Positions 1,881-62,866 of a stretch of 64,000 nt of DNA are shown here, piece after piece. This DNA comes from a virus, in IMG/VR virus record IMGVR_UViG_3300036851_000176, positions 1-64,000 of that record. The stretch is one strand, 5' to 3'. How positions within the stretch are numbered: the first letter of the stretch is position 1; each line of letters starts with the position of its first letter. A program made the translations under genes and the position numbers. The notes beneath the pieces are model-generated. The model did not search any database, was not told the DNA's origin, and saw only the letters and a program-made list of their open reading frames with translations.

Positions 1881-1913
1881 GCGAGACTGGCTCCGATGGA
1901 CGATGATGAGAGT

Positions 1914-3056
1914 ATGGAAATGACTCCCCTGCCCACTCTCTACAAGCGAGCCAGCGACGGATCGATCCAGGAATGGACCATCCGCGTGGGCACGGACACG
2001 TCCGGCCACGGCTGGATCGTGACGGACTACGGCAAGGTCGGCGGCAAGATTCAGCGGACCGAGGACGTAGTGACCGAGGGCAAGAACGTGGGCCGCGCGA
2101 ACGAGACCACGGCGGTTGAACAGGCCGAGGCCGAGGCGCTGAGCAAGTGGGAAGGAAAACTCAAGAAGGGCTACGTCAAGACGATCGAGGAAGCGCGCGA
2201 GGGCAAGACGGACGCGCTCATCGTCGGCGGCGTGGCTCCCATGCTCGCGCATCCGTTCGCAAAGTACGGCCACAAGATCAAGTTCCCTGCGCTCGCGCAG
2301 CCGAAGCTCGACGGACACCGCTGCATCGCCGTCTATCAGAACGGCGAGGCGCGGCTGTACTCCCGGACGCGCAAGCCGATCACCGGACTGCCCCACGTCT
2401 GCCGAGCCATTGAATCATTGTGTCGGTCTATCGGCGCGACGAGCGGAGTGTTCGACGGCGAACTTTACAACCACGACTACCACGACAACTTCGAGGACCT
2501 GACGGGCTTCATTCGCTCGCAGACTCCTAAGCCTGGTAGCGAGGTAGTCCAGTATTGGATCTACGACCTTGTGAACGACTCACCGCAGTCCGCTCGCGCG
2601 GAGGCTATCGCTGCTATCTCGGAGCAGAGCGTAGGCGCGCTGGTCGCGGTTCCGACGATCGAGGTTGCAGACGAGGACGAAATGGTCGCGCTGTTCGGGG
2701 AGTTCATGGGCCAGGGCTACGAAGGTCTCATGCTCCGTAACCTGGACGGCCGCTACAAGATCGACGGCCGCAGTTACGACCTACAGAAGGTCAAACTGTT
2801 CCAGGACGCCGAGTACAAACTGGTCCACATCGAATCGGGCCGAGGCAAGATGCAGGGCAAGGCCGTGTTCCACTGTGAGGTTGAGCCTGGCAAGACCTTC
2901 AAGTGCAAGTTGGTCGGTCGCCTGGACGATCTGGAACAGTACCTCAACGAGCCGGACAAGTGGCTTGGCAAGATGGTGACTGTCCAGTTTCAGAACCTCT
3001 CATCGGACGGCATCCCCCGCTTCCCCGTCGCCCTTCGATTCAGGCAGGACGTATGA
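1914..3056 (+). CDS. lig: ATP-dependent DNA ligase with N-terminal WGR-like region
   Basis: QPKLDGHRC (KxDG), FDGELY, YEGLMLR, LQKVK, C-terminal PRFP. Confidence 0.93.
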   Translation: MEMTPLPTLYKRASDGSIQEWTIRVGTDTSGHGWIVTDYGKVGGKIQRTEDVVTEGKNVGRANETTAVEQAEAEALSKWEGKLKKGYVKTIEEAREGKTDALIVGGVAPMLAHPFAKYGHKIKFPALAQPKLDGHRCIAVYQNGEARLYSRTRKPITGLPHVCRAIESLCRSIGATSGVFDGELYNHDYHDNFEDLTGFIRSQTPKPGSEVVQYWIYDLVNDSPQSARAEAIAAISEQSVGALVAVPTIEVADEDEMVALFGEFMGQGYEGLMLRNLDGRYKIDGRSYDLQKVKLFQDAEYKLVHIESGRGKMQGKAVFHCEVEPGKTFKCKLVGRLDDLEQYLNEPDKWLGKMVTVQFQNLSSDGIPRFPVALRFRQDV

Positions 3057-5272: not shown

Positions 5273-5713
5273 ATGGCCGAATACACAAACATCACACAGG
5301 ACGAAATGGCGGACTTCCTGGGCGACCAGGGATTCCTACAGATCCTCCTGCCGGGAGTGACGGAGTTGGTCTACGCGCGGCGCGCGAACACCGACGACCT
5401 CAGCCTCTCCCTTCGCGTCTATACCGGCATCGCCCCGAGTGGCGAGAGCAGGGACGTGGGCGAGGATGCGATCCGCTGCGTGATCTTCTGGCGCAAGCCG
5501 AGCGGTGACATCGTGAAGGTAGCGACCACGAAGCGCGTCCATCGCGTCAAGGGCTGGCGCAAGAACCTCCAGGACCGCCTCGACAAGATCGGCGTCGAGA
5601 AGCGCTGCGAGTGCGGCGCTCCGATGATCCGGCGCAAGGCCAAGGCTGGCCGAGGGTCTGAATTTTACGGCTGCTCCACCTTCCCCGAGTGCCGCAAGAC
5701 GAGTTCTGTATGA
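5273..5713 (+). CDS. Protein with C-terminal topoisomerase-type C4 zinc ribbon
   Basis: CECGAPMIRR...FYGCSTFPECR. Confidence 0.75.
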   Translation: MAEYTNITQDEMADFLGDQGFLQILLPGVTELVYARRANTDDLSLSLRVYTGIAPSGESRDVGEDAIRCVIFWRKPSGDIVKVATTKRVHRVKGWRKNLQDRLDKIGVEKRCECGAPMIRRKAKAGRGSEFYGCSTFPECRKTSSV

Positions 5714-6768
5714 AGATCACTGTCCTGATCCCCTCGCACAACGAGGAAGCCGTGATCGCTCGCTCGATCGAGAGCGTCCTGGCTCAGACTCGACGGCCGG
5801 ACAGGATCATCGTTGTGGCCGACAACTGCACCGACAGGACAGAAGAGATTGCGCGCGAGTGCGGTGCGGAAGTGTTCGAGACCGTGGACAACAAGCATCG
5901 CAAGGCCGGTGGGCAGAATCAGGCGCTCGCGTGGCTGCTGCCGACGCTGAGCGACGAGGACCTCATCGTCTCGATGGACGCGGACACAATGCTCTCGCCG
6001 GAGTTCTTGCGTAACGCCTCTCGCCACTTCTCGATCCGCCCTGGTCTCGGAGCGTGCTCATCGAATCACCTGGTCCACGAGGCGAGCCGACTGGTCGAAA
6101 CTTTGCAGGAAATGGAGTACGAGCGCGACCGGCGCTACACCGGCCGAAAGCGCGGGAGGGTCGGCTGCATGACGGGCATGGCCTCCATGTTCTCCGTGAG
6201 TGCGCTCAGGCGCATCATCGAGTTGCATGGCACCGTCTACGACGAGGGCAACTGGACCGAGGATTGGAAACTGACCTTCGCGCTCAAGCACGCGGGCTAC
6301 CGCTGCATCCGTCCGCAGGACTGCACGGCGGCGACCGTCCCTGTCCCTCGCTGGCGCGAGTTGTTCGTCCAGCGCGAGCGTTGGGGTCGCGGCTACTTCC
6401 AAACGATCTGCGAGTTCGGCCTCACGCGACAGACCCTACAGCCGTGGCTCTCGCAGGCATGGGGAGCGCTCACTTCGATGATCTGGCTGGTCTGGATGAT
6501 CCTCCTGGCGGCGTCGATCGCCCGAGCGCATGAATTTCATTTCCCGCTGTGGTGCTATGCGACGACGGGCATCTTTATCACCGAGCGAGTCGTGACGGTC
6601 AGGAAGGCTGGCTGGCGCGCGGCGCTCATCGCGGGGCTGTACCTGCCCGAGATTCTGTACTCCTGGTGGCTCGTCGGAGCTACCTACTTCGGAGTTGCCA
6701 AGCATCTGCTTGGCCGTCAAGGCCAGTGGGGCGACGTTCGCGCCACCGGCAAAGCCACGATCACCTAG
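5710..6768 (+). CDS. Processive membrane GT2 glycosyltransferase (PgaC/IcaA/HAS-like)
   Basis: LIPSHNEE, DNCTD, KAG, DADT, TED, QRERW; C-terminal TM helices. Confidence 0.88.
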   Translation: MKITVLIPSHNEEAVIARSIESVLAQTRRPDRIIVVADNCTDRTEEIARECGAEVFETVDNKHRKAGGQNQALAWLLPTLSDEDLIVSMDADTMLSPEFLRNASRHFSIRPGLGACSSNHLVHEASRLVETLQEMEYERDRRYTGRKRGRVGCMTGMASMFSVSALRRIIELHGTVYDEGNWTEDWKLTFALKHAGYRCIRPQDCTAATVPVPRWRELFVQRERWGRGYFQTICEFGLTRQTLQPWLSQAWGALTSMIWLVWMILLAASIARAHEFHFPLWCYATTGIFITERVVTVRKAGWRAALIAGLYLPEILYSWWLVGATYFGVAKHLLGRQGQWGDVRATGKATIT

Positions 6769-16244: not shown

Positions 16245-16700
16245 ATGTTTAGTGAGAAATGGGAGCGCTACTTCATGGGCATGGCCCAATACGTCTCGAC
16301 CATCTCGAAGGACCCGAGCACTAAAGTCGGTGCTGTCATCGTCAACGAACTCAAAGAGATCGTCGGCACGGGCTACAACGGCTTCCCTCGCGGTGTCGAT
16401 GACCGAGAGGATCGGCTGAACGACAGGCCGACCAAGTACGCACTGGTCGTCCACGCCGAACTGAATGCGATCATTCAGGCCGGACATCGCGCTCGCGGCG
16501 GGACAATCTACGTATGGCCTCCGTTCGGACAACCTCCGTGCTGCTCCGGGTGCGCCAAGGCGATCATCCAGGCTGGCATCAAGCGAGTCGTCGGCTACAC
16601 GCCGGAAGGGACAGTTGAGCGTTGGTCGGAGGACCTGGCCGTCGCTCGTAGTCTGCTCGAAGAGGCAGGCGTGATGATGAACTACTGGAGCGAATCATGA
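16245..16700 (+). CDS. dCMP deaminase
   Basis: SKDPSTKVGAVIV, GYNGFP, HAELNA, PCCSGC. Confidence 0.92.
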   Translation: MFSEKWERYFMGMAQYVSTISKDPSTKVGAVIVNELKEIVGTGYNGFPRGVDDREDRLNDRPTKYALVVHAELNAIIQAGHRARGGTIYVWPPFGQPPCCSGCAKAIIQAGIKRVVGYTPEGTVERWSEDLAVARSLLEEAGVMMNYWSES

Positions 16701-17065
16701 ACATTCTGCTCGTAGATGACCATGACGTTGAGTCGCTTTCGTCGTTGCTCGAAATGCGCGACTACAGAGTGCAGACAGCGAAGTCGCTTCAAGGAGCGAT
16801 GGACGTACTCCTGCTCGATCAGGATGATCCTCAGTGCGACCCCGTCCACGTCGTGATCACGGATTACGACCTCGGCCCTCTGAGCAACGGTGACGGAGAT
16901 CAACTCTTGGCTGCGGTCAAGAGAAACTGGCCGACGATCGGAACGTGTCTTTGGAGTGGACTCGATCGCCCTCCGTGCGATGCTGCTGACCTCCAAATCA
17001 CCAAGATGGACATCGACGACCTCCTCGACTGGCTTAGGGAAGAGGCGCTGATTCATGGAGAGTGA
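16697..17065 (+). CDS. Stand-alone response-regulator receiver (CheY-like) domain
   Basis: ILLVDD, VVITDYDL, WSG, conserved K. Confidence 0.82.
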   Translation: MNILLVDDHDVESLSSLLEMRDYRVQTAKSLQGAMDVLLLDQDDPQCDPVHVVITDYDLGPLSNGDGDQLLAAVKRNWPTIGTCLWSGLDRPPCDAADLQITKMDIDDLLDWLREEALIHGE

Positions 17066-17071
17066 TAGAAC

Positions 17072-17326
17072 ATGATTGGCCACGAAGAATTTGCTCGCTT
17101 CCAGGCTCAGTGCTGCACAATGGAGAGCGCCGACGAAGTGCTGGCGGCGTGGGGAATCGACATGGAGGCATTCGCCATCATGGTCGATCAGTTCGCGCAC
17201 ATGCAGGCGGCTCAGGTTGAACCGATCGGGCCGTTGGCTCCGTATCAGGCTCTATACACGATGTTCCTGTCGGGGTTCGAGATGGGCTACCTGTCACGGC
17301 TCGAAGCGGAGTTGCAACAGGCATGA
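17072..17326 (+). CDS. Hypothetical protein
   Basis: 84-aa ORF. Confidence 0.55.
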   Translation: MIGHEEFARFQAQCCTMESADEVLAAWGIDMEAFAIMVDQFAHMQAAQVEPIGPLAPYQALYTMFLSGFEMGYLSRLEAELQQA

Positions 17327-17562
17327 AGACCATCGTTGCGTCCACGATCCGGCAGGCCGACCTAGCTGCTCGAATTCTTATGCTCGACCGCAAAGAGTGG
17401 CGCTATGCGAGCCGTATTGAGCACCTTAACGGCGTGTTCGCCGAGGACATCGTGATCGCGTACCCGACTCTCGGATTTGACTCAGCCATCGCGGAGATCT
17501 ATAGGTTCGCCCTTTATCGCTGCAATATGGCGATGATCGAACCAACCACGGTCACCACCTAA
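17323..17562 (+). CDS. Hypothetical protein
   Basis: ATGA overlap. Confidence 0.5.
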   Translation: MKTIVASTIRQADLAARILMLDRKEWRYASRIEHLNGVFAEDIVIAYPTLGFDSAIAEIYRFALYRCNMAMIEPTTVTT

Positions 17563-17630
17563 GCGGCATTTCTGCCTCTTCACGTACCATGACGATGTCG
17601 ATCGACAAGCAAGACGAAAGGAGCAACTGA

Positions 17631-18062
17631 ATGAAGAAGTACCTCAGGTGGCTTCCTTTGCTGCTCGCTGCGGTGTCACTGGCTTTCGCCAGTGTCGCTG
17701 TCGCGGGTTCGCTGGACAAGCCACCGTCGCCACCCGGCCAGGATCCGTGCTCGCACGGAAACACCGGCAAGCCATGCAAACCCGATCCCCAGCCAACGAA
17801 TGGCAAGGACTGCGACAAGCATGGCAACAACGGAGGGGTGAACGAGGATCACTGCGCTGGCGTAACCACGCCACCAACGACCTCGTCGAATCCGCCGAGC
17901 AATCCACCGGCGAATCCTCCGGCAAAGCCGAACACGCCTTCGACTCCCGGCAAGCCTCCGGTCAACAAGCCTCCGGTCGCAAAGCCAGGAAAGCCGAAGC
18001 CGCAGGCTCCACCCGCTCGTCCGAATCGCCCCGCAACGGCGAAGCTGGCCCACACGACCTAA
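17631..18062 (+). CDS. Secreted Cys/Pro-rich protein ending in LAHTT, candidate sortase substrate
   Basis: Sec signal MKKYLRW...AVA; four Cys; Pro-rich linker; AAGGAG RBS. Confidence 0.8.
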   Translation: MKKYLRWLPLLLAAVSLAFASVAVAGSLDKPPSPPGQDPCSHGNTGKPCKPDPQPTNGKDCDKHGNNGGVNEDHCAGVTTPPTTSSNPPSNPPANPPAKPNTPSTPGKPPVNKPPVAKPGKPKPQAPPARPNRPATAKLAHTT

Positions 18063-18063
18063 C

Positions 18064-18540
18064 GTGGGCATCGGCTGGCTACTAGCGGCAGCACTCGCGA
18101 TCTCGTCTCCTCCGGCGCACATACCGGAGGGGGCGCGGATCGGGGTCATAACTGTCCCTCGAATTCATCTGCGCGCCCGCGTCCTACAGGGCGGGATGAA
18201 TCTTTACACGAAAGACTGGCCTCGCACTCTTAACGGAGGTCCGGCTCACTACCCTGACACGTCTCTGCCCTGGCAGTACGGCACCATGGGCATCGCCGGT
18301 CACCGAGTCACACACACGCATCCATTCCTTCATCTGGATCGCATGCGTCGAGGCGACAAGATCTATCTCAAAACTCGCTATGGGACGTATACCTATCGGG
18401 TATACAAAGTGATCGTCGTACCGCCAAATGCGCTCTGGATTCTGAATGGGCGTAAGGTTCAGCACCTGGTTCTCACGGCCTGCAACCCGCCGCACTTCGC
18501 AACGACTCGCATCGCCGTGTTCGCTCGCCTGGTTACTTAA
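18064..18540 (+). CDS. Sortase, class E-like
   Basis: HYPDT, IAGHRVTH (His), LVLTACNP (Cys), TTRIAV (Arg); N-terminal hydrophobic anchor. Confidence 0.92.
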   Translation: MGIGWLLAAALAISSPPAHIPEGARIGVITVPRIHLRARVLQGGMNLYTKDWPRTLNGGPAHYPDTSLPWQYGTMGIAGHRVTHTHPFLHLDRMRRGDKIYLKTRYGTYTYRVYKVIVVPPNALWILNGRKVQHLVLTACNPPHFATTRIAVFARLVT

Positions 18541-18859
18541 CCGGTGCCGACCGACCGGAATTAGTCGGCTGCACGCAGTTGTCTTTCGGTCCTGCGATGT
18601 GAGTTCCTCCTGACCGAGAGCCTGCGTTAGCGATTCTCTCGCCACAAGTCGGAGGAGTGTATGTGCCAGCCGTCCCGGCCATGATCGCCATGAGGACGAC
18701 GAAGATCGTGAAGCCCCAGACGAGCCACGCGGTTGTCTCCCACGGCATCCACTTGCAATGGTCGCAGCCCTTCTCCTCCCTCTTCGATTTTCGGTCGTGT
18801 CTCCAGTCATCCCGGTCGGGGTCTGGATCGACAGGCGGGAATTGATGCGGTGAAAACAT
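18533..18859 (-). CDS. Membrane protein
   Basis: Central TM helix; converges with the sortase gene. Confidence 0.55.
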   Translation of the reverse strand: MFSPHQFPPVDPDPDRDDWRHDRKSKREEKGCDHCKWMPWETTAWLVWGFTIFVVLMAIMAGTAGTYTPPTCGERIANAGSRSGGTHIAGPKDNCVQPTNSGRSAPVK

Positions 18860-18872
18860 GGGTTACCAAAGT

Positions 18873-19136
18873 TTACACATCAATGGCAGCCTCGATGGCA
18901 GAAATCTCTCGCTGAGCGAACTCGATAACCATCTCTAGGAAGTCGATCAATTCCTTCTTCGAGGAACCACGAGCGGAGAAGGCCGTATCGCAGAGCATCG
19001 GATCGACCTGATCGTAGTCACCGCGCAGGAGAACGACAAAACCTCGCTTCTCTTTCCGCAAAGCTGAAAGAGCACGAGCCTGGACCTGATCAAACTCGTG
19101 GATCGCCTTTCCTCCCAGGGCGAACTCTCCCACCAT
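18873..19136 (-). CDS. Hypothetical protein
   Basis: 87-aa ORF with AAGGA RBS. Confidence 0.55.
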   Translation of the reverse strand: MVGEFALGGKAIHEFDQVQARALSALRKEKRGFVVLLRGDYDQVDPMLCDTAFSARGSSKKELIDFLEMVIEFAQREISAIEAAIDV

Positions 19137-19143
19137 GAGATCC

Positions 19144-20046
19144 TTATTTCAGGACTCGTGTGAGCGTGATCGTCTTCGCCGCACGTACCGTGTCAAGATG
19201 GGAGTCCAACCAGTCGATACAGCGCGTGAGTCCAGTGTCAAGCGGACTGGTCGAGAATGTGACCGCACGCTGCTCGAATAGAACCTGAGTTCCTACCTTG
19301 ACCTGCCACCAGCCGACCTTGGGAGACGGCGGAGGGGGAGGCGGAGGTGGCTGCTCTGGATTGACCTTGCCCCATGCGACCCACTGATCGCCCGTCATTG
19401 GCTCAGCAAGATAGACACCAAAGATCCGCCCCTGCTTATCGAGGCCAGCATAGGCGCTTGGCATCTCACCCCGATACGTCCCGCAGAGAGAGATGAGTGC
19501 ATCCTTCGGGATGCCGTAAATCTCTCCTTGCCCGAGCATCTGATCCAAGTTCGCGTGGCTGTCGGCGTCCGCCTTGTAGCACTCGACGAAGGCAGCCTTG
19601 ACGCCAAGAGAGGCAATCTTCTTCCACTTCGAGCCAGATCGGATCGTCGTATCGTTCGTCGGATCGTACAGGCCCCAGTAGGTCGTGACCACAGCGAGAG
19701 GCAGCGTGTTCCCCGCCGCCTTCAGTGCTTCTAGCGCCTGGACGCACGAGTCGTACTGCCCTGGCCCTTCGATCTGCGGCATGATTCCGTTCGGCTTGAA
19801 GTCGCGCACGATCTGAACGATGCTAGCGTCCATGACGTTCCAGAGAACGACAAAGATCCCTCCGTCCTGAAGGGTCTTCACATCGGCGGGCGTACACTGG
19901 CCGGTCTGGAGGCACACGGTCTTGAAGCCGGTGCTCTTCGCCCAATCGCGCAGAGCGCTGGCGTCCCCGAACCGATCACCCGGAGTGCCTGACATAAGCC
20001 CCCAGGCGACGAAAATCAACGGAGAAGGAAAGGGCGAAATTGGCAT
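19144..20046 (-). CDS. Hypothetical protein, possible glycoside-hydrolase-like domain plus poly-Pro linker
   Basis: Alternating alpha/beta pattern, poly-Pro run, own TACACT-N6-ATG promoter. Confidence 0.55.
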   Translation of the reverse strand: MPISPFPSPLIFVAWGLMSGTPGDRFGDASALRDWAKSTGFKTVCLQTGQCTPADVKTLQDGGIFVVLWNVMDASIVQIVRDFKPNGIMPQIEGPGQYDSCVQALEALKAAGNTLPLAVVTTYWGLYDPTNDTTIRSGSKWKKIASLGVKAAFVECYKADADSHANLDQMLGQGEIYGIPKDALISLCGTYRGEMPSAYAGLDKQGRIFGVYLAEPMTGDQWVAWGKVNPEQPPPPPPPPSPKVGWWQVKVGTQVLFEQRAVTFSTSPLDTGLTRCIDWLDSHLDTVRAAKTITLTRVLK

Positions 20047-45857: not shown

Positions 45858-47423
45858 TCATGAGATGGCCCATTGAGTAGCGAAATCCGCTGCTCCTGTT
45901 GCTCCAACGGGTCCGGTCGCTCCTGTCGCGCCCGCAACACCGGCCGGTCCAGTTGATCCGGTCGCTCCAGCGGTTCCTGTAGCACCAGCAGGACCGGTGG
46001 CTCCCGTTGCACCGTCGAATCCATCGTCTCCATCTGCTCCGCTCGCTCCCACCGGGCCTGTCGCTCCTGTTACTCCTGCTCCCGTTGCCCCGGTCGCCCC
46101 TACTGCACCAGCCGAACCAGTGGCTCCTGTGGCACCAGCCGCGCCCGCCGATCCTGCCGAGCCAGTTGCTCCTGTGGCTCCCGCTGTACCTGCGCCCGTC
46201 GCACCGGTTGCTCCAAGTGAAACAGTCGCCATCGCAAACTGGTATGTCGCCAGAAGTGTGTCTCCCGTTAGAGGGGCCGTAACAAATGTGATCGTGCTTC
46301 CGGACAGCGTGTAGTCTGCGCCACCAGCGCTCTGAAGAACTCCGTTGCGGTACAACTCCAGAGTTGTGCTTGGAGTCGGAGAATTTGCCAGCGTGTACAT
46401 GACGTTGGCTCCATTGATTGCGCCTCCGGGCGTCTCGTTCCAGATGATGTTGGCTGCTGAGAGTGCTCCCGTCGCTCCTGTGGATCCGTCAATCCCATCT
46501 GTTCCATCTACTCCCGCCGGACCGACAGGGCCAGTGGCGCCCGAGGCCCCGATGTCACCGGTTGGACCTGTTGCGCCTGTGGCGCCATTTGCGCCCGTGG
46601 CGCCCGTAGCACCGTCAATTCCGTCAATTCCGTCAATGCCCGCTGGCCCCGTTGCTCCGGTCGCTCCACCCGATCCTGTGGCGCCTGTGGCTCCGGCCGA
46701 TCCAGCCGCGCCAGTAGCTCCCGTCGCTCCGTCCACTCCCGTTCCGGTACCTCCGCCTCCGCCCGCTCCTCCAACAACCATGCTGGTCGGGCCGGGAGCG
46801 CCAATCGGGCCAGGGTCTCCTCGACGGGCTACGAGTTGCCAGTATTCGTTCGAGCGCTTGTTGTCGGCGGCGGGATCAATTCCCGCTGGAACATCCTTCT
46901 TCGGCTGATACGTGCTACCGAGACGGAAGACAAGAGGAGCAAGGGCCTTGTACTCGTCCTTGCGATTCCACGTTACGACTTCAGGGAACTCTCCAGCGGG
47001 TCCGGTCGCTCCATCCGCACCGGGCGCTCCGTCAGCGCCGTCACGACCATCCTTTCCATCCGCTCCGTCCCGACCGGCCGGTCCCGTCGCACCGGGCGTC
47101 CCATCTTCACCGTCCTTGCCATCTGCTCCGGTCGATCCCTTCGGTCCCTGCGGCCCAGTTTCTCCCTTCGGCCCCTGCGCTCCCGTTGGACCTCGACGAC
47201 CGGTCGGACCGAAGAACCCCTGCGGTCCAGGAGGGCCTTCGCCTCCCGGAGGTCCTTCTGGCCCGGTCGCGCCGGGAGGTCCAGTCGGCCCGACATCTCC
47301 TGGATCGCCCTTCTTGCCCGGAGCGCCGAACTGACCCGCAGGGCCGGTAGCGCCTGTCGCGCCGGTCTCTCCGGGCTTGGGGGCGACCACACGAGTTGGA
47401 ATCGTGTAGTTCTTCTTACCCAT
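45858..47423 (-). CDS. Collagen-like protein with three GXY tracts and two globular inserts
   Basis: GPT/GAT repeats; W...Y...YWQLVA insert; [11 protein letters not shown] domain. Confidence 0.85.
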
Positions 47424-47455: not shown

Positions 47456-49375
47456 TTAACCGCCCCCGTCATCGGGAGCGGTTTCCTCTGGGTCTGGAGC
47501 GATGGGAACACCATCGATGTTCACAGTGGTGTCCGGGACGTGGACATGAATGTCTGGTTCTTTGCGAGAGAAGAATGCCTTGACAGCCTCCATGAACCCG
47601 CGACGCTCTTCGGCATCTCGCTCGATCAAAGCGCGATCTTCTTCGGACAATCCGATCGGCTTCTCTTCCAGATCTGGATTCTGAACAGTAACGTTCACGA
47701 CCGGATCACGATTGAGAAGGCGAGATAGCAAACCGCTGAAACGGTTGAAGTCGCCATCGATCTTCTCCGACAGTTCGACGCTCTTGCTTTCCACAACCTC
47801 GCCAGCGACCTCTCGAATCCTGTCCTCCAGTCCGACCTTAATCTCTTCGATCTCCTCTTCCTTGAAATAGCGACCATTCTCGTCCACGCCAGCGAAGTTT
47901 CCGCGAGCGCTCTGGGGAGGTGGCTTCATCGACTGGAGATGCTCGATCAGGTCCTCCTGCTGCTTCTTCGCCTCGATTGGATTCAGGATCGGTACGCCTA
48001 GTCGCTTCAGAAGTTCACGAATGTCCACGGACGCGAGTTCTGCGGGAGCATTCTGCGCGAGCGCCTGCACGATCGCGCGACCCGTTTCCACATCCTGATC
48101 CTCGAAGCCGGTCGTGACGATCTCACACGTTGGTCCGCCAGGACCGAAGTTCGCTTCGAGCAACTGCGGGATCATGTAGCGGTTGATCTGGTCATCGATC
48201 TCGGCCTTGATGATCGCCTGCCCGTCCTCAAAGGTCGAACCAAGAGTGGCTGCGACGTTGCGCGATGATGTTCCGCCCTTGCCCTCGAAGAATGCCTGCT
48301 CCGGAACCATGAGCGCTCGGAGGCGAGATACGTCGAGATACTCAAACGACTCATTCAACGCGTCGAAGTTCGTGTTGACTTCCATGTGCTTCAGTTCCCA
48401 CGAACGGAGGTTGAGGGTGCGTCCATCCATCTGACTCTCGACAGCGCTACTCGGCAGCGAAACATTTGCGCCAGAGCGGAGTTTCTCGGCGAGACCCAGA
48501 GCCTCCTGCGTGAAGTTGCGAGGGTTGCCCTCGTCGTCAGTCGCGAGTTCGGTTGGGTGATACGCGATCACCGGCGGATCGGCCCACTTCTCGAATGCTC
48601 GGTCAGCCAAGCCGAAGCGATACCAGTACGCCCACCAGAATCGGTATGCGTAACCCAGGCGCGGCCAGCCATAGAGGGAGCCGAACACGGAGTCCTTCTC
48701 GTTGGTCGCCCAGAGCGCCCAGTCGAGACCAATCTTTCCGTCTGAATCTGCTTTCTCCTCGAATGGGAACCGGGACCCTGCCTGCGTGTTTCGGTAGTTG
48801 ATCCCTGCGAAGTTTCCATCTGCGTCCCATGCTGGAGTGACGTGGCGCGGGTTGAGAGGACTGAACGGTTTCCAGAGCAGAGGATCAGCGCTCGAACTCC
48901 AGACTCTTACCTCCTGCGCGTCCGGTCCATTTCCGCTCAGGTAGACCCAATCGACCGGAGCGCGCTCGAAGTTCTTGACCATGGCCTGAAAGCCGAAATC
49001 GAGACTGCCTCCGTACTGGAGGATGAAGCGGCCGTAGATCCTGCGCAGCGCTCCGTCGATGAACGCGGCTCGACGAGGGTCTGTACTCTTGATGTACCAG
49101 TTGGCGCGAGCGAGATACGCCTTGATGAACGATAGTCCGAACGAGAGGATCGGATCACGACGCATCTGTTCCAGGTCGCCGATCGTGACCTTCGTAGCAT
49201 CCGGGGTGCGTCCACCAGCTCGGAAAATATCGCCCCCAGTCTTCCACCGAGAGGTCGAGGAGGCGGTGCTAGGTCCCTTGTCAGCGGCCAGACGGTCTCT
49301 CAGCCGCTCACGGGCCTCTTCGCTATCACCTTCCGCGAAGTGTGCTCCGCCCACGCTGAGGTCGTCATCTGGCAT
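47456..49375 (-). CDS. Portal protein (DUF935-like) with C-terminal extension
   Basis: Follows terminase; LDFGFQAM, FGSLYG, AFEKWADP, LLEANFG. Confidence 0.75.
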   Translation of the reverse strand: MPDDDLSVGGAHFAEGDSEEARERLRDRLAADKGPSTASSTSRWKTGGDIFRAGGRTPDATKVTIGDLEQMRRDPILSFGLSFIKAYLARANWYIKSTDPRRAAFIDGALRRIYGRFILQYGGSLDFGFQAMVKNFERAPVDWVYLSGNGPDAQEVRVWSSSADPLLWKPFSPLNPRHVTPAWDADGNFAGINYRNTQAGSRFPFEEKADSDGKIGLDWALWATNEKDSVFGSLYGWPRLGYAYRFWWAYWYRFGLADRAFEKWADPPVIAYHPTELATDDEGNPRNFTQEALGLAEKLRSGANVSLPSSAVESQMDGRTLNLRSWELKHMEVNTNFDALNESFEYLDVSRLRALMVPEQAFFEGKGGTSSRNVAATLGSTFEDGQAIIKAEIDDQINRYMIPQLLEANFGPGGPTCEIVTTGFEDQDVETGRAIVQALAQNAPAELASVDIRELLKRLGVPILNPIEAKKQQEDLIEHLQSMKPPPQSARGNFAGVDENGRYFKEEEIEEIKVGLEDRIREVAGEVVESKSVELSEKIDGDFNRFSGLLSRLLNRDPVVNVTVQNPDLEEKPIGLSEEDRALIERDAEERRGFMEAVKAFFSRKEPDIHVHVPDTTVNIDGVPIAPDPEETAPDDGGG

Positions 49376-49381
49376 GCGAAA

Positions 49382-49403
49382 GCCTCCCAGGGTCACGGGA
49401 GGC
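49382..49403 (-). promoter_or_regulatory. Hairpin sequestering the portal RBS
   Basis: GCCTCCC-8 nt-GGGAGGC, then TTTCGC ATG. Confidence 0.5.
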
Positions 49404-49478: not shown

Positions 49479-51335
49479 TCATCGAGGCGTAGGCCAGCCC
49501 GGTGGTCTGGGGAAATTCGTGCTTCGAGCCGGTTCCCCGCCTCCTGGGAGATACCTGCTCGGACCGGATCCGGTTCCGGTACTTCCTCCGTATCCTGATT
49601 CTCCCGCTCCTGTTGGCGCCGCTGCGGACTGCTGGCTGCGCTTGATCGTTCGCACATTTGCGATCAGATAGCGCGTCGCGTCTACTGCATGATCGAAGTC
49701 TTTGACGGGTCGATCCGGAATGTCAATCTGTCCCGGCTTTGGGTCGGGGTTGTGCCAGACCTCGATCTCGTCGCAGAGCATGTCGCAGCGCGTCACGTCC
49801 ACGTAGAACTGGTTCTCTTCGATGAGGTCGCGCCAGTAGGTCGTGTGCAGATCTACGTCCTTCGTGGCGTAGTTGACCAACGGGATAGGAGGGTCATGCG
49901 CTCTCCATTCGAGCATCGCTCCGCGAGCCTGCACGTCATAGAAGAAGCGCTTGATGTGGAACTCAGGGAATCGCATCTTCCAGTATCCGATTCGCTTGAT
50001 CACCAGATCCGCCATCTTCGATGGGGCGAGGTTGGCCTTGTAGATCTCGTCGAACACAACGTGCGATCCTGCGGGAAGAACGATCGCTGGCTCCTCTCTA
50101 TCGGCCTGGTGGAAGCCAAGCACGATCACCGGCTTGTTGAGCACCTGGACGAACTCAATAGCTGTTGGGTTCGTTCCTCCGAAGTCCACGCTCGCGAAGA
50201 CCATTCCATTCGATGGATCGGGCATGAAATGTCGGATGCCATGACGTTGGCGGTCGAAGTCAGGGAGTCTCAGACCAGATGCGGACGGGCGCGAGCACTC
50301 CTGCTGAGCCTCCCACACGTCCCTGGTCGTCGTTCGGAAAGTCTTATGGAGGTCTCCAAGCGGGAGCCATCCTCTGCTACGCGCGAGGCGACCATTACAC
50401 ACGTCCTCGAACGTGCGGTCCTCGCCCGATTCCCACTTGCCCTTGACAACACGATTGCATTCACACTTCTCCTCTTCGGGGAGATCTGGATACGCCTTGC
50501 GGCAGTTGGGCACTTCCTGAGCGCACTCGAAGATGCACCAGGTGTAGAGACGATACGGAGGATCGAAGCCCGCCTTCTCCGCGTCGCGGATTTCGTTGAG
50601 AAGCGTCTGCATCGGACCGTGCGCGCGCTTTCGTGTTGACGTAATAAGGTCTTGCGCTCGATTGCCGCCCTTGGACAGAGAGATGTTCCGTGACTCCTGG
50701 AACACGCCAGGCTTCATGAGTTCCTGCTCGTCAACGTGGCAATGAGGGTGATGCGGCCCGTTCACCGCAGCCTCGGTGCCAGGAACGATCTCGACCTTCG
50801 CCCCGTTGTTGAAAATCGTCTCTGACATGAGGCACTTCTCTACGTCGGGATGATCTTCGGCCTGCTGAACCTTACCGTCAGTCTTGATCAATTCAGTCAG
50901 TCGGTCGTAACAGCGACCGGCGTGCTCAAGAATGGCCCCGACGCTGATTCCATCGCAGCCCTTGAACTTAGCGCTGAGCATGTGCCACAGTGCGGCCATC
51001 TGCGTCTTCGATCCGCCACGGTTCGTCATCCAGAGCGCTGAATAGTCGCGTTCGAAGTAGAGATTGCTGAACGCCTCGAACGGAGATTGATGTTCAGGAC
51101 ACACGCGCGTGCGGGGAATGTCTAGCCCATATGTGTCCAGAATGTAAGCGTGTAATTCGTCGTCAGTCTGCGGCCCTTTCGCCGACTTCCAACTCTGGTA
51201 GGCCAGCAGGCAGTCGTCCTGCTGATCCGTTGTCAATGACGGAAAACTCTCCGTCCAGAATTTCTCCGCCCTCGGACGATCCGAGGCCAAGATCCCGAAG
51301 AACTCCGGCCAAGAGATCTGTTCGTTGCTGATCAT
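49479..51335 (-). CDS. terL: Terminase large subunit
   Basis: NRGGSKT (Walker A), HVDEQE (Walker B), SVDFGG, DHAVDATRY. Confidence 0.88.
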   Translation of the reverse strand: MISNEQISWPEFFGILASDRPRAEKFWTESFPSLTTDQQDDCLLAYQSWKSAKGPQTDDELHAYILDTYGLDIPRTRVCPEHQSPFEAFSNLYFERDYSALWMTNRGGSKTQMAALWHMLSAKFKGCDGISVGAILEHAGRCYDRLTELIKTDGKVQQAEDHPDVEKCLMSETIFNNGAKVEIVPGTEAAVNGPHHPHCHVDEQELMKPGVFQESRNISLSKGGNRAQDLITSTRKRAHGPMQTLLNEIRDAEKAGFDPPYRLYTWCIFECAQEVPNCRKAYPDLPEEEKCECNRVVKGKWESGEDRTFEDVCNGRLARSRGWLPLGDLHKTFRTTTRDVWEAQQECSRPSASGLRLPDFDRQRHGIRHFMPDPSNGMVFASVDFGGTNPTAIEFVQVLNKPVIVLGFHQADREEPAIVLPAGSHVVFDEIYKANLAPSKMADLVIKRIGYWKMRFPEFHIKRFFYDVQARGAMLEWRAHDPPIPLVNYATKDVDLHTTYWRDLIEENQFYVDVTRCDMLCDEIEVWHNPDPKPGQIDIPDRPVKDFDHAVDATRYLIANVRTIKRSQQSAAAPTGAGESGYGGSTGTGSGPSRYLPGGGEPARSTNFPRPPGWPTPR

Positions 51336-58683: not shown

Positions 58684-59705
58684 GCTGCCTCCTTGAACAT
58701 CTCGGCCTTGATCTTGTCCTGGAGTTTCTTGTCGCCCTCGATCAGTTCGCGGACTCCGTTTTTGCCCTGAACCTTCTGATCCCCGTACACATACCAGGAA
58801 GAGCCCTTGCCGGTTGGTTCGACGATCTTGTGGTAGATCGCGCCCTTCATAAGCGACCACAGTTCGTCGTATTGACCGGTGGCATAGTCGAGGCGGAGCC
58901 GCGCGGTTGCATTTTCCTTGCCGAACCCTCCGCTCTTGGCGACGCGAATCGCGTACTCGATCCCATCTGGCTCTTTGTCGCCAGTCAGGGATTCGCCTGC
59001 CTTCGTGTCGGGGTCGAGCACCCCGTCAGCGGTGTAGTACAGCCAGTGGGACTTGCGGAACGCCAGCGACAGACGAGAGATGTACTCGATGGCTGCGCCG
59101 CCTGTGGGATTCTCGCTCCCCCCGTACCCGAACGCGCTGCGGGTCTGGTTGATCATGATGATCGTGTTCTCGGTGTCATCGAAACGCTCGTTGACGCGCC
59201 GAATCGTCTTTCCCCACACGCGGGCACTGATGCCGGGACGCCACTCGTTCGCCTTCATGGAAAGTTCCTCCTCGGCCACGCCGAACGCGATCGAGTCAAT
59301 GACGTGGACGTGGGCTGAGGACAGGAGAGTTTCGAGCTTCGCTCCGACATGCTCGATCACCGTGCCCTCGACGACCTCCAGTTTGTTCGTGTCGATGCCA
59401 TGCTTCTTACACCACGCCTCCGAGAACTGCTTCTCGATGTTGTAGTACGCGCAAGTGAGTCCCATCGCCTGAGCATTGGCAATCACGTTATAGGCCGTCA
59501 GCGTCTTGCCACTGGCCTTCGGCCCGAAGAAGTGGCACCAGCGTCCGAGCGGTACTCCGCCGCCAATCGCGTAGTCCAGTTCCATGCTTCCGGTCGGAAT
59601 ACGCCGCAGCGCTGGCTTGTCTGAACCCTTGACGACGGCCTTCTCCCCGTACAACTTCCTGATGATCGACAGATGCTTGTCGAGATTGCTTGGATCCACA
59701 GGCAT
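58680..59705 (-). CDS. recA: RecA-like recombinase
   Basis: IPTGSMELDYAIGGGVPLGR, GPKASGKT, VIDS, INQTR, TGG. Confidence 0.92.
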   Translation of the reverse strand: MPVDPSNLDKHLSIIRKLYGEKAVVKGSDKPALRRIPTGSMELDYAIGGGVPLGRWCHFFGPKASGKTLTAYNVIANAQAMGLTCAYYNIEKQFSEAWCKKHGIDTNKLEVVEGTVIEHVGAKLETLLSSAHVHVIDSIAFGVAEEELSMKANEWRPGISARVWGKTIRRVNERFDDTENTIIMINQTRSAFGYGGSENPTGGAAIEYISRLSLAFRKSHWLYYTADGVLDPDTKAGESLTGDKEPDGIEYAIRVAKSGGFGKENATARLRLDYATGQYDELWSLMKGAIYHKIVEPTGKGSSWYVYGDQKVQGKNGVRELIEGDKKLQDKIKAEMFKEAA

Positions 59706-62700
59706 TAGTTATCCTCCTCGGCTAGTTGGGCTGCGAGACGGCTCACGGAGTCGGCTCGGGTGACGGTGAGGGAGCGACGATCTTCCTGCCACTTACCTCT
59801 TAGAAGGATAGCGTTCCCCTCGGTCAGCAGATCCTTGTATCGGCTCAATTGCTCGGACCAGAACACCGTCTCAATGTCCTGCCCGTCGAACCACAGGCGG
59901 ACGAACGCATAGGGGTCGCCCTTCTTCGTCTTCTTGCGCTTGACTTCGACGACCTCACCGGCGACGTTCACGCGCTGGCCGTCCTCTGCCTCGTCCAGAA
60001 TGTCGAGGAGGCAGAACTCGTCGAGGAACTCTCTGTACTCGGCCAGTTGAGACTTCTGGCTCGGGGAGAATCCGAGCAGGTTGCGCTCGTACTCGCCCTT
60101 CACTTCGTCGTGCATGCCGTCGCGCTGGCCGTCGAAGTCGAATGCTCCGCAGTCGATGAGCGACTGCCGAACTCGCGAATTGATCATGCGCTTGGCTTTG
60201 GCGGCGGCGATCTTCTCGTCAAACTCTTCGAGATTGGCGAAGGGACGAAGTTCCATGATCTTGCTGGCAGCGGTGTCTCCGACGTTCTGGATCCCCAGCA
60301 GTCCGAATCGGATGCTGTCGCCATCCAGCGTGAAGCCGATGCCCGACGAGTTCACGTCCGGAGGCATGACCTCGATCTTGTACGCGCGCGCCTCGCGAAT
60401 CGCCGAGTCGGCCTCCTTCGGCTTCACGGTCATGATCGCTGCGTAATACTCGACCGGGTAGTGGGTCTTGAGCCACTGATCCTGGTACGCCTGGAGCGCG
60501 TAACCGGCGGCGTGCGCGCGGTTGAACGAGTACGTGGACATCTCCAGGATGTCGGCGAAGAGTTGCTTCGCATACTCGGTCGCGACGCCACTCTTCTTGC
60601 ATCCGTCCATCCAGATCTTCCGGAACTCCTCGAGCTTCTTGCGTCCCTCGATGTCGCGAGCGACACCCTTGCCGACGACCTTGCGCGCTTTGTCCGCGAT
60701 GCCAGGGTCCACGCCCGCGAGCACGATGAAGAGCATCATCACTTGCTCCTGGTACGTGATGACTCCGTAAGTGCGTCCGAGCACGCTCTCGGCCTGCTCC
60801 GGGATCTCGTACTCCTCCTTGCCGTTCTTGCGCTTGGAGAACTTGCCGATGTAGGCCATTGGACCCGGGCGAGCCATCGCGTTCGCCGCGATCAGATGCT
60901 CAATCTCTGTCGGCTTGATCTCTGCGGCAGCGCGCATAGCGGCGGGGCCAGCGAACTGGAAGATGCCTAGATTCGATCCCTTGCCGAATCTCTCGCAGAC
61001 CTCGCGCTCTCCAACAGGAGTGACGATCTCCGGGTGGGTGATCGGATCCTCGAAGTCCACGACGACTCCGTGGCGCTCTTTGATGAACTCGATGCACTTC
61101 TGCTGGATCGTCAGCGCTTCTGTCACCAGCATGTCGATCTTGAGGAAGCCGTAGGTCGCGATCAGTTCGTTGTTCGCTCGCGCGCTCCACTGAGTCACGG
61201 CCTCCTGACCCTTGGTCTCGTCGGAATCGCCGCGCATCGACTTGAGGCCAGGGATGCGCATCGTCGGCATCAGTTCGCGCACCGGGCCGTCCGTAACGAC
61301 CACCGCTGCGGCGTGCTTCGACATGTTCTTGATCTGTCCTTCGAGACGAGTGGCCGTATCCCATGCGTCGGGATGATCCTCCCGCCACTTGGCGACCCTC
61401 TCGTGCCCCGGCTTGTCTACGACATCTTCGAGCGTCGTGCCGATCGCCTCGTCATCGAGTTCTTTCGAGACGGACTCGCCCTCCATGTACTCGAAGCGGA
61501 ACACTCGGCCGAGATCTTTGATCACAGACTTCATGCCGAACGACTGGAACGCGGCCACGTCCGCGACTTGCTCCTCTCCGTACTTGTCTACGAGGTACTG
61601 ACGCACTTCGTCGCGCCGGTCAGCCTGAAAGTCGATGTCAACGTCCGGCATCTCCGCGCGCGCGTCGTTCATAAAGCGCTCGAACAGGAGGTCGTACCCG
61701 ATGGGATCGATCGCCGTGACGCGGATCAAGTACAGAACGAGCGAGGCCCCCGCCGAACCTCGACAGGGGCCGACTCGGATACCCTGGAGTTTCGCCCAGC
61801 GTACCATGTCGCCGATGATGTAGAAGTAGTCGAACGCGTCCTTGCGATCGAACATCGCGAGTTCGTGGGCCAGGCGCTCTTCGTACTCCTGCACGCCTTC
61901 CTTACCAATTCTGGTAAGCCCTTCACGGCACCATTCGGTGATCGTCTTCTTGGCGTCAACTTCGACGCGAGGGAACTTCGGCGCATCAGAGAAAGTGAAG
62001 GCGTCTACGCTCTTCGCGATGTCGAGAGAGGTCGCAATCCCTTCATCCACGTACTTCTCTGCGACACCCATGCTTGCGAAATGCTTGCGCACCTCCTCTT
62101 CGCTCATCATCCACTGAGTCGGATAGGCATAGTCGATCGCAGTCTTATCCTTGTCCTCTTCCTTCTCGGACTTCGTTCCCATGCTCGACCTCATCGCGCG
62201 CACGGCTCCCTGAGACAAGCGCCAGTCCTCGTCGGGGTAGTGGGCATCGCACGTCGCCAGCAGCGGAACGCCACGCTCTTGAGCCATAGAAATGATGGCA
62301 TCGTTGGCGATGTTCTGTCCGTCGAAATCGTGTGGCTGGATCTCCATGTAGAAGTCATCGCCGAACAGGCCGAGGAATCGGCCGAGGATTTCTTCCGGGT
62401 CGCCGTCGATGCGCTGCTCCCACGGCTGGAGGATCAGGCGGGGGATGTACCCGTTCACGCAGCCAGAAGTGCAAATGAGACCTTCCCGGAATTTGGAAAG
62501 TAGTTCCCAGTCAATGAGAGGATTCCGGTAGAAGCGATCGTGCTCGAAGCTGACGCTCGACAGCCGCATCAGGTTCTGGAATCCCTGCGCGTTCTTCGCC
62601 AACAACAGAAGATGGTGCCCGCGCGTCTGAGTCTCTTTCGCCCATCCCTGGTACGGCTCGAAGTACGTCTCGATGCCGATGATTGGCTTGATGTCCGCGT

Positions 62701-62866
62701 CGTCGCACGCCTGCGCGTGATACAGCGCACCGGCCAGGTTCTCGTGGTCAGTCAGAGCGAAGGCGTCCTGCTTGATCTCCTTGGCGCGCTCGGCGTAGTT
62801 CTCCGCCTTGCCGCAGCCGTCCAGGAGGGAGAACTCGCCATGCAAGTGCAGGTGGCAAAAACTCAA
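59705..62866 (-). CDS. dnaE: DNA polymerase III alpha subunit
   Basis: HLHLHGEFSLLDG, RGSAGASLV, MPDVDIDF, GFLKIDML, SFNRAHA, C-terminal OB fold. Confidence 0.96.
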   Translation of the reverse strand: MSFCHLHLHGEFSLLDGCGKAENYAERAKEIKQDAFALTDHENLAGALYHAQACDDADIKPIIGIETYFEPYQGWAKETQTRGHHLLLLAKNAQGFQNLMRLSSVSFEHDRFYRNPLIDWELLSKFREGLICTSGCVNGYIPRLILQPWEQRIDGDPEEILGRFLGLFGDDFYMEIQPHDFDGQNIANDAIISMAQERGVPLLATCDAHYPDEDWRLSQGAVRAMRSSMGTKSEKEEDKDKTAIDYAYPTQWMMSEEEVRKHFASMGVAEKYVDEGIATSLDIAKSVDAFTFSDAPKFPRVEVDAKKTITEWCREGLTRIGKEGVQEYEERLAHELAMFDRKDAFDYFYIIGDMVRWAKLQGIRVGPCRGSAGASLVLYLIRVTAIDPIGYDLLFERFMNDARAEMPDVDIDFQADRRDEVRQYLVDKYGEEQVADVAAFQSFGMKSVIKDLGRVFRFEYMEGESVSKELDDEAIGTTLEDVVDKPGHERVAKWREDHPDAWDTATRLEGQIKNMSKHAAAVVVTDGPVRELMPTMRIPGLKSMRGDSDETKGQEAVTQWSARANNELIATYGFLKIDMLVTEALTIQQKCIEFIKERHGVVVDFEDPITHPEIVTPVGEREVCERFGKGSNLGIFQFAGPAAMRAAAEIKPTEIEHLIAANAMARPGPMAYIGKFSKRKNGKEEYEIPEQAESVLGRTYGVITYQEQVMMLFIVLAGVDPGIADKARKVVGKGVARDIEGRKKLEEFRKIWMDGCKKSGVATEYAKQLFADILEMSTYSFNRAHAAGYALQAYQDQWLKTHYPVEYYAAIMTVKPKEADSAIREARAYKIEVMPPDVNSSGIGFTLDGDSIRFGLLGIQNVGDTAASKIMELRPFANLEEFDEKIAAAKAKRMINSRVRQSLIDCGAFDFDGQRDGMHDEVKGEYERNLLGFSPSQKSQLAEYREFLDEFCLLDILDEAEDGQRVNVAGEVVEVKRKKTKKGDPYAFVRLWFDGQDIETVFWSEQLSRYKDLLTEGNAILLRGKWQEDRRSLTVTRADSVSRLAAQLAEEDN

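Follow-up and report, generated by a model that had tools for sequence, protein, structure and literature searches.

How could a sortase be supplied with a protein that carries no membrane-spanning tail? Sorting signals, in their definition as well as in prediction software, comprise a motif with a hydrophobic domain and a basic tail after it. The question is raised by two adjacent genes at positions 17631-18540 of a DNA stretch of 64,000 nucleotides (nt), hereafter the window, which covers positions 1 to 64,000 of the soil phage record IMGVR_UViG_3300036851_000176, an IMG/VR virus contig of 146,625 bp that CheckV rates as 95% complete. A first-pass annotation had noticed here a sortase with a His/Cys/Arg triad starting 1 nt after the gene of a secreted protein that ends in LAHTT-stop, and the coordinates and the triad were confirmed. 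We consider it fairly probable that the two genes form a self-contained surface-grafting module, common to uncultured soil Actinomycetota (Gaiellales and their relatives) and their phages. Judged by sequence comparison, the tail-less pair looks like an undescribed way of supplying proteins to a sortase, which recurs in dozens of actinobacterial genomes and in at least one other phage-like contig.

The enzyme was identified by several independent tools. Its match to the Pfam family Sortase (PF04203, peptidase C60; E 2.5e-26, 92.3 bits against a cut-off of 26.6) covered residues 29-157 and spanned the whole 125-position profile, and the NCBIfam model TIGR01076 scored 53 bits against a cut-off of 39.35. 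The three catalytic residues His80, Cys140 and Arg149 were invariant in a 28-sequence family alignment. The AlphaFold2 (AF2) model (pLDDT 84) together with the Foldseek matches to class C, D and E sortases (E about 1e-11 to 1e-12, TM 0.72-0.75) revealed the eight-stranded beta-barrel of the sortase fold. The nearest solved structures found by profile search, 5GO5, 5UUS, 5CUW and 9IOK, are all class E enzymes. Moreover, Tyr63 aligns with the GHY tyrosine of 5CUW, which lies 22 residues ahead of the catalytic His (positions 229 and 251). Tyr229 of SrtE1, located in the beta3/beta4 loop, has been proposed as the determinant for Ala at P3 (Kattke et al., PMC5148588), and such a role of Tyr63 would fit the invariant Ala of the motif described below. 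The link to class E drawn by the first-pass annotation thus stood in part: the nearest structures and the hallmark Tyr speak for it, but the class E model NF033747, although the best-scoring class, gave 81.3 bits and fell clearly below its cut-off of 160, and the membrane anchor and the long beta6/beta7 loop are absent. The sortase would thus be a class-E-like transpeptidase acting on the putative sorting motif.

The upstream gene, hereafter the substrate gene, encodes a knob-on-stalk protein whose four cysteines (residues 40, 49, 61 and 75) and three histidines lie in the knob. Its leader suggests that the protein is secreted by a Sec-type route. LAHTT is directly followed by TAA (18060-18062), and no hydrophobic-plus-basic tail was found after it in any frame, the sole downstream hydrophobic stretch being the N-terminus of the sortase. 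All three elements of a canonical cell-wall sorting signal that were looked for in the substrate, namely Gly at P1', a hydrophobic membrane-spanning segment and a basic tail, are absent. The two genes are likely to be translationally coupled, as judged from their junction.

The tail-less end is shared by many relatives. A protein search returned many sortase relatives of 146-186 amino acids (aa), and in all of the first three contigs (3/3) the directly upstream gene ended in L-A-H/Y/F-T plus one residue and a stop; one of these contigs is a piece of bacterial chromosome with ssb, rpsR and efp, and another has the genes beside ftsH and a sigma factor. A GTDB scan with one genome per species gave 77 loci, and the strict motif (L-A-x-T-x-stop) adjoined the sortase in 17 of them, all from Gaiella, Gaiellaceae, Gaiellales or unclassified Actinomycetota metagenome-assembled genomes (MAGs). 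From metagenome contigs came another 28 loci in which the motif lies just upstream of the sortase, and in two metagenome loci the substrate gene lies downstream instead, so that the gene order is reversed. When 38 loci were aligned (alignment A2), L, A and T were invariant, the third position was Y, F or H, and neither a membrane helix nor a basic tail was present. Exactly one residue followed the Thr in 38/38, this being Pro in 32 and otherwise T, K, E, A, R or L, never Gly. The final residues other than Pro occurred mostly in the closest relatives of the phage. Inspection of the upstream C-termini in sortase homologs, the check proposed in the first-pass annotation, yielded the motif, one residue and a stop in every homologous pair examined, and not LAXTG with a transmembrane segment.

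These counts bear on the most trivial explanation, by which the window gene would be a truncated or frameshifted substrate of the LAXTG-transmembrane type, or would be fused to the sortase by programmed read-through or frameshifting. The stop 1 nt ahead of the sortase start is compatible with this, and in a related locus (L002) the two genes share one frame. A Logan contig from a soil run (depth about 10), however, was letter-identical over 17500-18700 with zero indels. Because of this identity an assembler slip is excluded, and the suspected indel at 18050-18070 was not found; the run is probably the source sample, so the contig stands for a second assembler and not for a second sample. In addition, the stop position is kept in 38/38 loci, the gene order is reversed in two, and a fused catalytic domain would sit on the wrong side of the membrane. 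Since the spacing at the junction varies among relatives, from a 4-nt overlap to a 26-nt gap, and the frame varies too, a read-through or frameshift fusion was rejected. An artefact of either kind is given next to no credence here.

The phylogeny agrees with the distribution of the motif. In a tree of catalytic domains, motif-bearing and motif-less loci were split by a branch of length 1.44 (SH-aLRT 100), with L016 as the one exception. Of the LTAC-type sortases whose flanks were long enough to be judged, about 49 of 57 adjoin a tail-less gene, L003 being counted among the motif loci by direct inspection. In the sister clade of about 58 sortases (L011, L020-L081), by comparison, no adjacent strict-motif gene was found. 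A relaxed motif (any-[A/P]-any-T-any-stop) was present in 17 of the 78 sister-clade loci with enough flank; as it does not discriminate, only the strict L-A-x-T-x or directly inspected adjacencies were counted. The sister clade has GHW in place of GHY and LFAC in place of LTAC, and belongs mostly to Acidimicrobiia, with a few members binned as Burkholderiales. His84 (in THT) was considered as a family-specific carboxylate-binding residue and rejected, since it is common to this motif-less clade and to SrtE1.

Whole genomes allowed the specificity of the pair to be assessed. In five Gaiellales-type genomes (2.9-4.1 Mb), the DNA pattern for L-A-[Y/F/H]-T-P-stop matched once per genome and always beside the small sortase (5/5), while the reversed-pattern control gave 0-2 matches per genome. 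A second sortase-domain match was present in three of the five: two are enzymes of 232-256 aa with a charged membrane anchor, and in the third genome (G002) the match is a class-F-like domain ending a larger protein. Because the motif is unique per genome and stands beside the small sortase, with the other sortase domains elsewhere, the small sortase is, on this genomic evidence, a dedicated one-enzyme, one-substrate system and not a housekeeping sortase. The earlier proposal of a dedicated sortase paired with a soluble tail-less substrate is thereby strengthened. The passenger domains that carry LAxT-x are otherwise unrelated and include SpaA-type prealbumin folds, InlB B-repeats and domains of no known family. 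What is conserved, as far as the compared loci indicate, is the protein end together with its sortase neighbour, and not the passenger.

The knob of the window substrate provides a further line of comparison. It is a widespread, unannotated 40-residue module of soil Actinomycetota and phage-like contigs, with four invariant Cys, three His and several Asp, Glu and Asn; across 33 homologs (alignment A3) the invariant positions are Cys40, His42, Cys49, Asp52, Cys61, His64, Asn71, Glu72, Asp73, His74 and Cys75. It had no match in Pfam or NCBIfam and no usable match in an ESM Atlas search, and the AF2 model of the whole substrate gave no confident fold over it (pLDDT <50). The knob could bind metal or form disulfides. 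The phage knob is 68% identical to that of the partner protein in a MAG locus (L009). Among the 120 homolog matches listed, 40 end in the canonical LP[F/Y]TG with a hydrophobic helix and a basic tail, 11 end in L-A-x-T-x-stop, and more than 30 have other tail-less ends (APLTL, APFTL, PPFTL, APFTP, PAYTK and FPYTP). For all five tail-less ends inspected (APLTL, APFTP, APFTL, PAYTK and FPYTP) a small sortase starts within a few nt downstream, and no sortase was found near the canonical LP[F/Y]TG knob gene at the one locus inspected. By this comparison, the tail-less end behaves like a functional equivalent of the sorting signal on the same knob domain.

It could still be argued, as the role of the signal is deduced from comparison, that LAxT-x is not a sortase signal and that the stalk protein serves, for instance, as a chaperone, an inhibitor or a scaffold of the enzyme. 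We regard this as very improbable, because the motif matches the LAXT core of class E, is invariant and unique per genome, and stands at the end of otherwise unrelated passengers, and because a canonical signal can take its place on the same knob domain.

Two side observations concern the knob family. Some knob homologs among the 120 matches listed end in Cys...Pro...G-S/N-G-stop, which may be a different, undescribed C-terminal signal; two phage-like contigs of 58 kb encode knob proteins of this type ending in VVQGSG-stop (L173:3001-3717 and L174:683-1399), and no sortase was found near either gene. At L170:3580-4310, an APLTL-stop knob protein is followed by a sortase in which a frameshift separates the His region from the Cys region; this reflects either an assembly error or a pseudogene.

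The enzymes changed along with their substrates. Short relatives (146-186 aa) have a hydrophobic N-terminus of 12-30 residues with few or no charges, and in L170 and L171 it forms a classical n-h-c leader with an AxA-type site that looks cleavable. Relatives of 232-256 aa, by comparison, carry a charged membrane-spanning anchor, followed by a linker of about 60 residues in the 232-aa ones; the one long relative examined (P0030) stands alone in its locus, with no adjacent substrate. An anchor-less enzyme thus correlates with a tail-less substrate. Because the enzyme anchor was lost together with the substrate tail, both partners can be read as having become soluble extracytoplasmic proteins.

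From these elements the following course of events can be proposed. The substrate would be exported by Sec and its leader removed, giving a soluble knob-on-stalk protein whose whole sorting signal would be the last five residues, L-A-H-T-T, with a free carboxylate. The sortase, made by coupled translation and bearing a short hydrophobic leader or stub but no membrane anchor, would bind this extreme C-terminus. Cys140 would then attack the carbonyl of Thr142 and release a single free amino acid, Thr here and Pro in most of the bacteria. As free amino acids, proline above all, should be poor nucleophiles for the reverse reaction, a leaving group of one residue may render the transfer effectively irreversible. 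The acyl-enzyme would be resolved by a host amine, most likely of a peptidoglycan stem or cross-bridge, and the knob would end up covalently displayed on the infected cell. Because the pair closes the plus-strand block that also holds a ligase, an exonuclease and a dCMP deaminase (the genes from 18533 on are on the minus strand), it would be made alongside these enzymes. Cleavage after Thr, the identity of the acceptor, the export of both proteins, the timing of expression and the benefit to the phage are all deduced from sequence; the likeliest benefit would be a covalent remodelling of the infected cell surface, for example by receptor masking.

Phage and bacterial loci share the two genes only, so either a generic component of the host or the substrate itself must act as acceptor. 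If the acceptor were the substrate, the Thr of one stalk protein would be joined to a stalk Lys of the next, building a pilus-like fibre or mesh as class C sortases do. A Lys-rich segment indeed lies just before the motif in all substrates, class C pilin sortases are the top Foldseek matches, one bacterial substrate contains a SpaA-type prealbumin-fold domain, and a soluble enzyme with a soluble substrate could polymerise off the membrane. However, alignment A2 has no conserved pilin-type motif or fixed Lys position, the enzyme is nearest in sequence to the wall-anchoring class E, no class C-type lid segment was seen in it, and each genome has one substrate gene only. Polymerisation is therefore judged quite improbable.

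Another acceptor than peptidoglycan, such as a lipid, a wall glycopolymer or an S-layer protein, or even a mere hydrolytic trimming of the last residue for maturation or release, deserves a similar weighing. How a soluble sortase would reach membrane-bound lipid II is not obvious, little is known of the Gaiellales-type envelope, and sortases are known to transfer to water as a side reaction. On the other hand, it would seem uneconomical to conserve a dedicated enzyme just for the removal of one variable residue, members of the knob family are anchored to the wall elsewhere through a canonical signal, and the phage has no acceptor gene in common with the bacterial loci. We hold this alternative to be improbable as well. 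A bolder version of wall grafting is unlikely but deserves somewhat more weight: the enzyme might be a membrane-independent soluble sortase, secreted or in some phages released by lysis, which reads the five-residue tag at a free C-terminus, releases one amino acid that is unable to attack again, so that ligation is effectively irreversible, and grafts the knob, stabilised by metal or disulfides, onto mature wall, possibly also onto neighbouring cells or particles, thereby altering adsorption.

Several points weigh against the grafting module as a whole. Characterised sortases are thought to need a membrane-held substrate, and SrtA is poor on a motif ending in a free carboxylate. The N-terminus of the window sortase has no positively charged n-region, and the sortase of a second phage-like locus (L175, described below) begins at the catalytic domain without a hydrophobic N-terminus, so export of the enzyme is not assured. 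About 9 of the 57 LTAC-type loci had no motif next to the sortase. L016 (3487-4408), the sole motif-less member of the small-sortase clade, has an enzyme with LTTCTP and an upstream protein that ends in RLPNR-stop. Finally, no RNA-recorded run in a search of sequencing runs contained the stretch 17631-18540. As a separate observation, the upstream context of L016 resembles that of L003.

As for the genome that carries the pair, virion and replication hallmark genes recognised by PHROGs (Table 1) occur together on the 146,625-bp contig and mark it as a bacteriophage genome. Its host is inferred, from homology only, to be a Gaiellales-type soil actinomycetote. The exonuclease, the dCMP deaminase and a receiver-like domain identified by Pfam lie shortly 5' of the pair. 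The latter is a stand-alone domain three genes upstream (Response_reg, E 3.3e-5, 24.5 bits, under the cut-off of 30.2) and has no homology to the ANTAR regulator that precedes the L002 pair. On the other side, a convergent open reading frame (ORF) overlaps the final 8 nt of the sortase gene; its product of 108 aa contains a single hydrophobic helix and several Cys, and it had no family match. A scan of 17000-19300 found no sigma-70 promoter and no terminator.

Sortases had been described at the outset as unusual cargo for a phage, and the searches bear this out. Only two weak sortase matches (26-28% identity) were present among 50,697 phage records, this sortase family occurred on no other IMG/VR contig in two viral-contig scans, and a megablast of 22 kb of the phage against phage records gave no match. 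The second phage-like instance came from an 81.5-kb Logan contig with 46% GC, only distantly related to the window phage, where a knob protein ending in FPYTP-stop is paired with a 134-aa sortase (L175:4872-5910) among small ORFs of no known function, a ribonucleotide reductase, a DnaC-like loader, DnaB, primase and SSB. Class B sortases with canonical signals have been described in gut huge phages, according to a preprint (bioRxiv 10.64898/2026.10.24.761521).

The window also contains a micro-ORF with the sole canonical sorting signal of the 146.6-kb genome. In this micro-ORF about 17 residues precede LPYTG, after which come a hydrophobic helix and a basic end; a signal peptide is absent. Because its motif matches the LP[F/Y]TG signals of bacterial knob-family proteins, the micro-ORF product may well be served by the housekeeping sortase of the host, which is as likely as service by the phage enzyme.

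Table 1. Positions of the substrate and sortase genes, their parts and other genes of the window.
Feature	Positions	Strand	Basis or remark
Shine-Dalgarno sequence GAAAGGAG of the substrate gene	17616-17623	+	Strong; 7 nt ahead of ATG
Substrate gene, 143 aa, ending in LAHTT-stop	17631-18062	+	ORF and homologs
Predicted signal peptide, residues 1-25	17631-17705	+	Sequence (n-region MKKYLR, hydrophobic core, AVA/G); helix 2-25 in AF2 model
Knob mini-domain, residues about 34-75	17730-17855	+	Alignment A3, 33 homologs
Pro/Lys-rich stalk, about residues 76-138	17856-18044	+	Thr-rich mostly in bacterial homologs
Tail-less putative sorting signal LAHTT	18045-18059	+	Alignment A2, 38/38 loci
Junction TAA-C-GTG (substrate stop and sortase start 1 nt apart)	18060-18066	+	Sequence
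Minimal sortase gene, 158 aa, GTG start	18064-18540	+	Pfam, NCBIfam, AF2, Foldseek
Short uncharged hydrophobic N-terminal stub, about 15 residues	18064-18108	+	In place of the charged anchor and linker of long relatives
Tyr63 (GHY), equivalent of SrtE1 Tyr229	18250-18252	+	Invariant in 28-sequence alignment
Catalytic His80	18301-18303	+	Family alignment
Catalytic Cys140 (LVLTAC, LTAC motif)	18481-18483	+	Family alignment
Catalytic Arg149	18508-18510	+	Family alignment
Ligase	1896-3056		PHROGs
GT2 gene	5689-6768		
LPYTG micro-ORF, 51 aa	6783-6938	+	Strong Shine-Dalgarno sequence AAGGGAGG; 14 nt after the GT2 gene
Receiver-like domain	16697-17065	+	Pfam
Convergent ORF	18533-18859	-	
Collagen-like tail fibre	45858-47423		PHROGs
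Portal	47456-49396		PHROGs
Large terminase	49479-51335		PHROGs
DNA polymerase	59705-62866		PHROGs

A family that has lost both the substrate tail and the enzyme anchor would indicate that sortase systems can do without membrane tethering, and current substrate predictors would overlook such tail-less proteins. If the proposal is true, a five-residue tag with a free C-terminus that releases one amino acid would make this an attractive ligation enzyme; reversibility and extra tag residues are known limits of current ligation methods. The pair would also add to the phage-borne sortase modules a second class, unrelated to the first and found in phages of soil Actinobacteria, and would support the idea that phages covalently remodel the surface of their hosts. 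It may further help to study the cell surface of Gaiellales-type bacteria, which abound in soil and have hardly been cultured.

A full-text literature search on the motifs and on tail-less or secreted sortase systems returned nothing relevant. The pair was compared with three systems that resemble it in part. Class E enzymes (Streptomyces coelicolor SrtE1, PDB 5CUW; Streptomyces avermitilis, 5GO5; Thermobifida fusca SrtE, 9IOK) provide its best-matching solved structures and share with it the H/C/R triad, the L-A-x-T core of the signal and the actinobacterial host range. Compared with them, the window sortase has no cytoplasmic tail, membrane anchor or linker, with only about 15-25 residues preceding the domain, and its beta6/beta7 loop before the Cys strand is 8-10 residues shorter than in 5GO5, 5CUW and 9IOK. 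Its substrate has one residue after the Thr, and no Gly at P1', hydrophobic domain or basic tail. Moreover, SrtE1 is a housekeeping enzyme, whereas the window sortase appears dedicated to one adjacent substrate.

The class GN 'marine' sortase TIGR03784, to which the window enzyme gave a weak match (E 6e-11), is likewise encoded beside a single substrate, but its lineage and motif differ. Its targets, as far as is known, keep the full tripartite sorting signal. The sortase B modules of gut huge phages (bioRxiv 10.64898/2026.10.24.761521) are alike in that a putative substrate gene lies directly upstream and display on the host wall is proposed. As described there, however, those enzymes are of class B, related to Bacillota and from the animal gut, and their substrates have PXTG, a hydrophobic segment and a positive tail, whereas here a soil actinophage-type genome of 147 kb combines a class-E-like enzyme with a tail-less signal.

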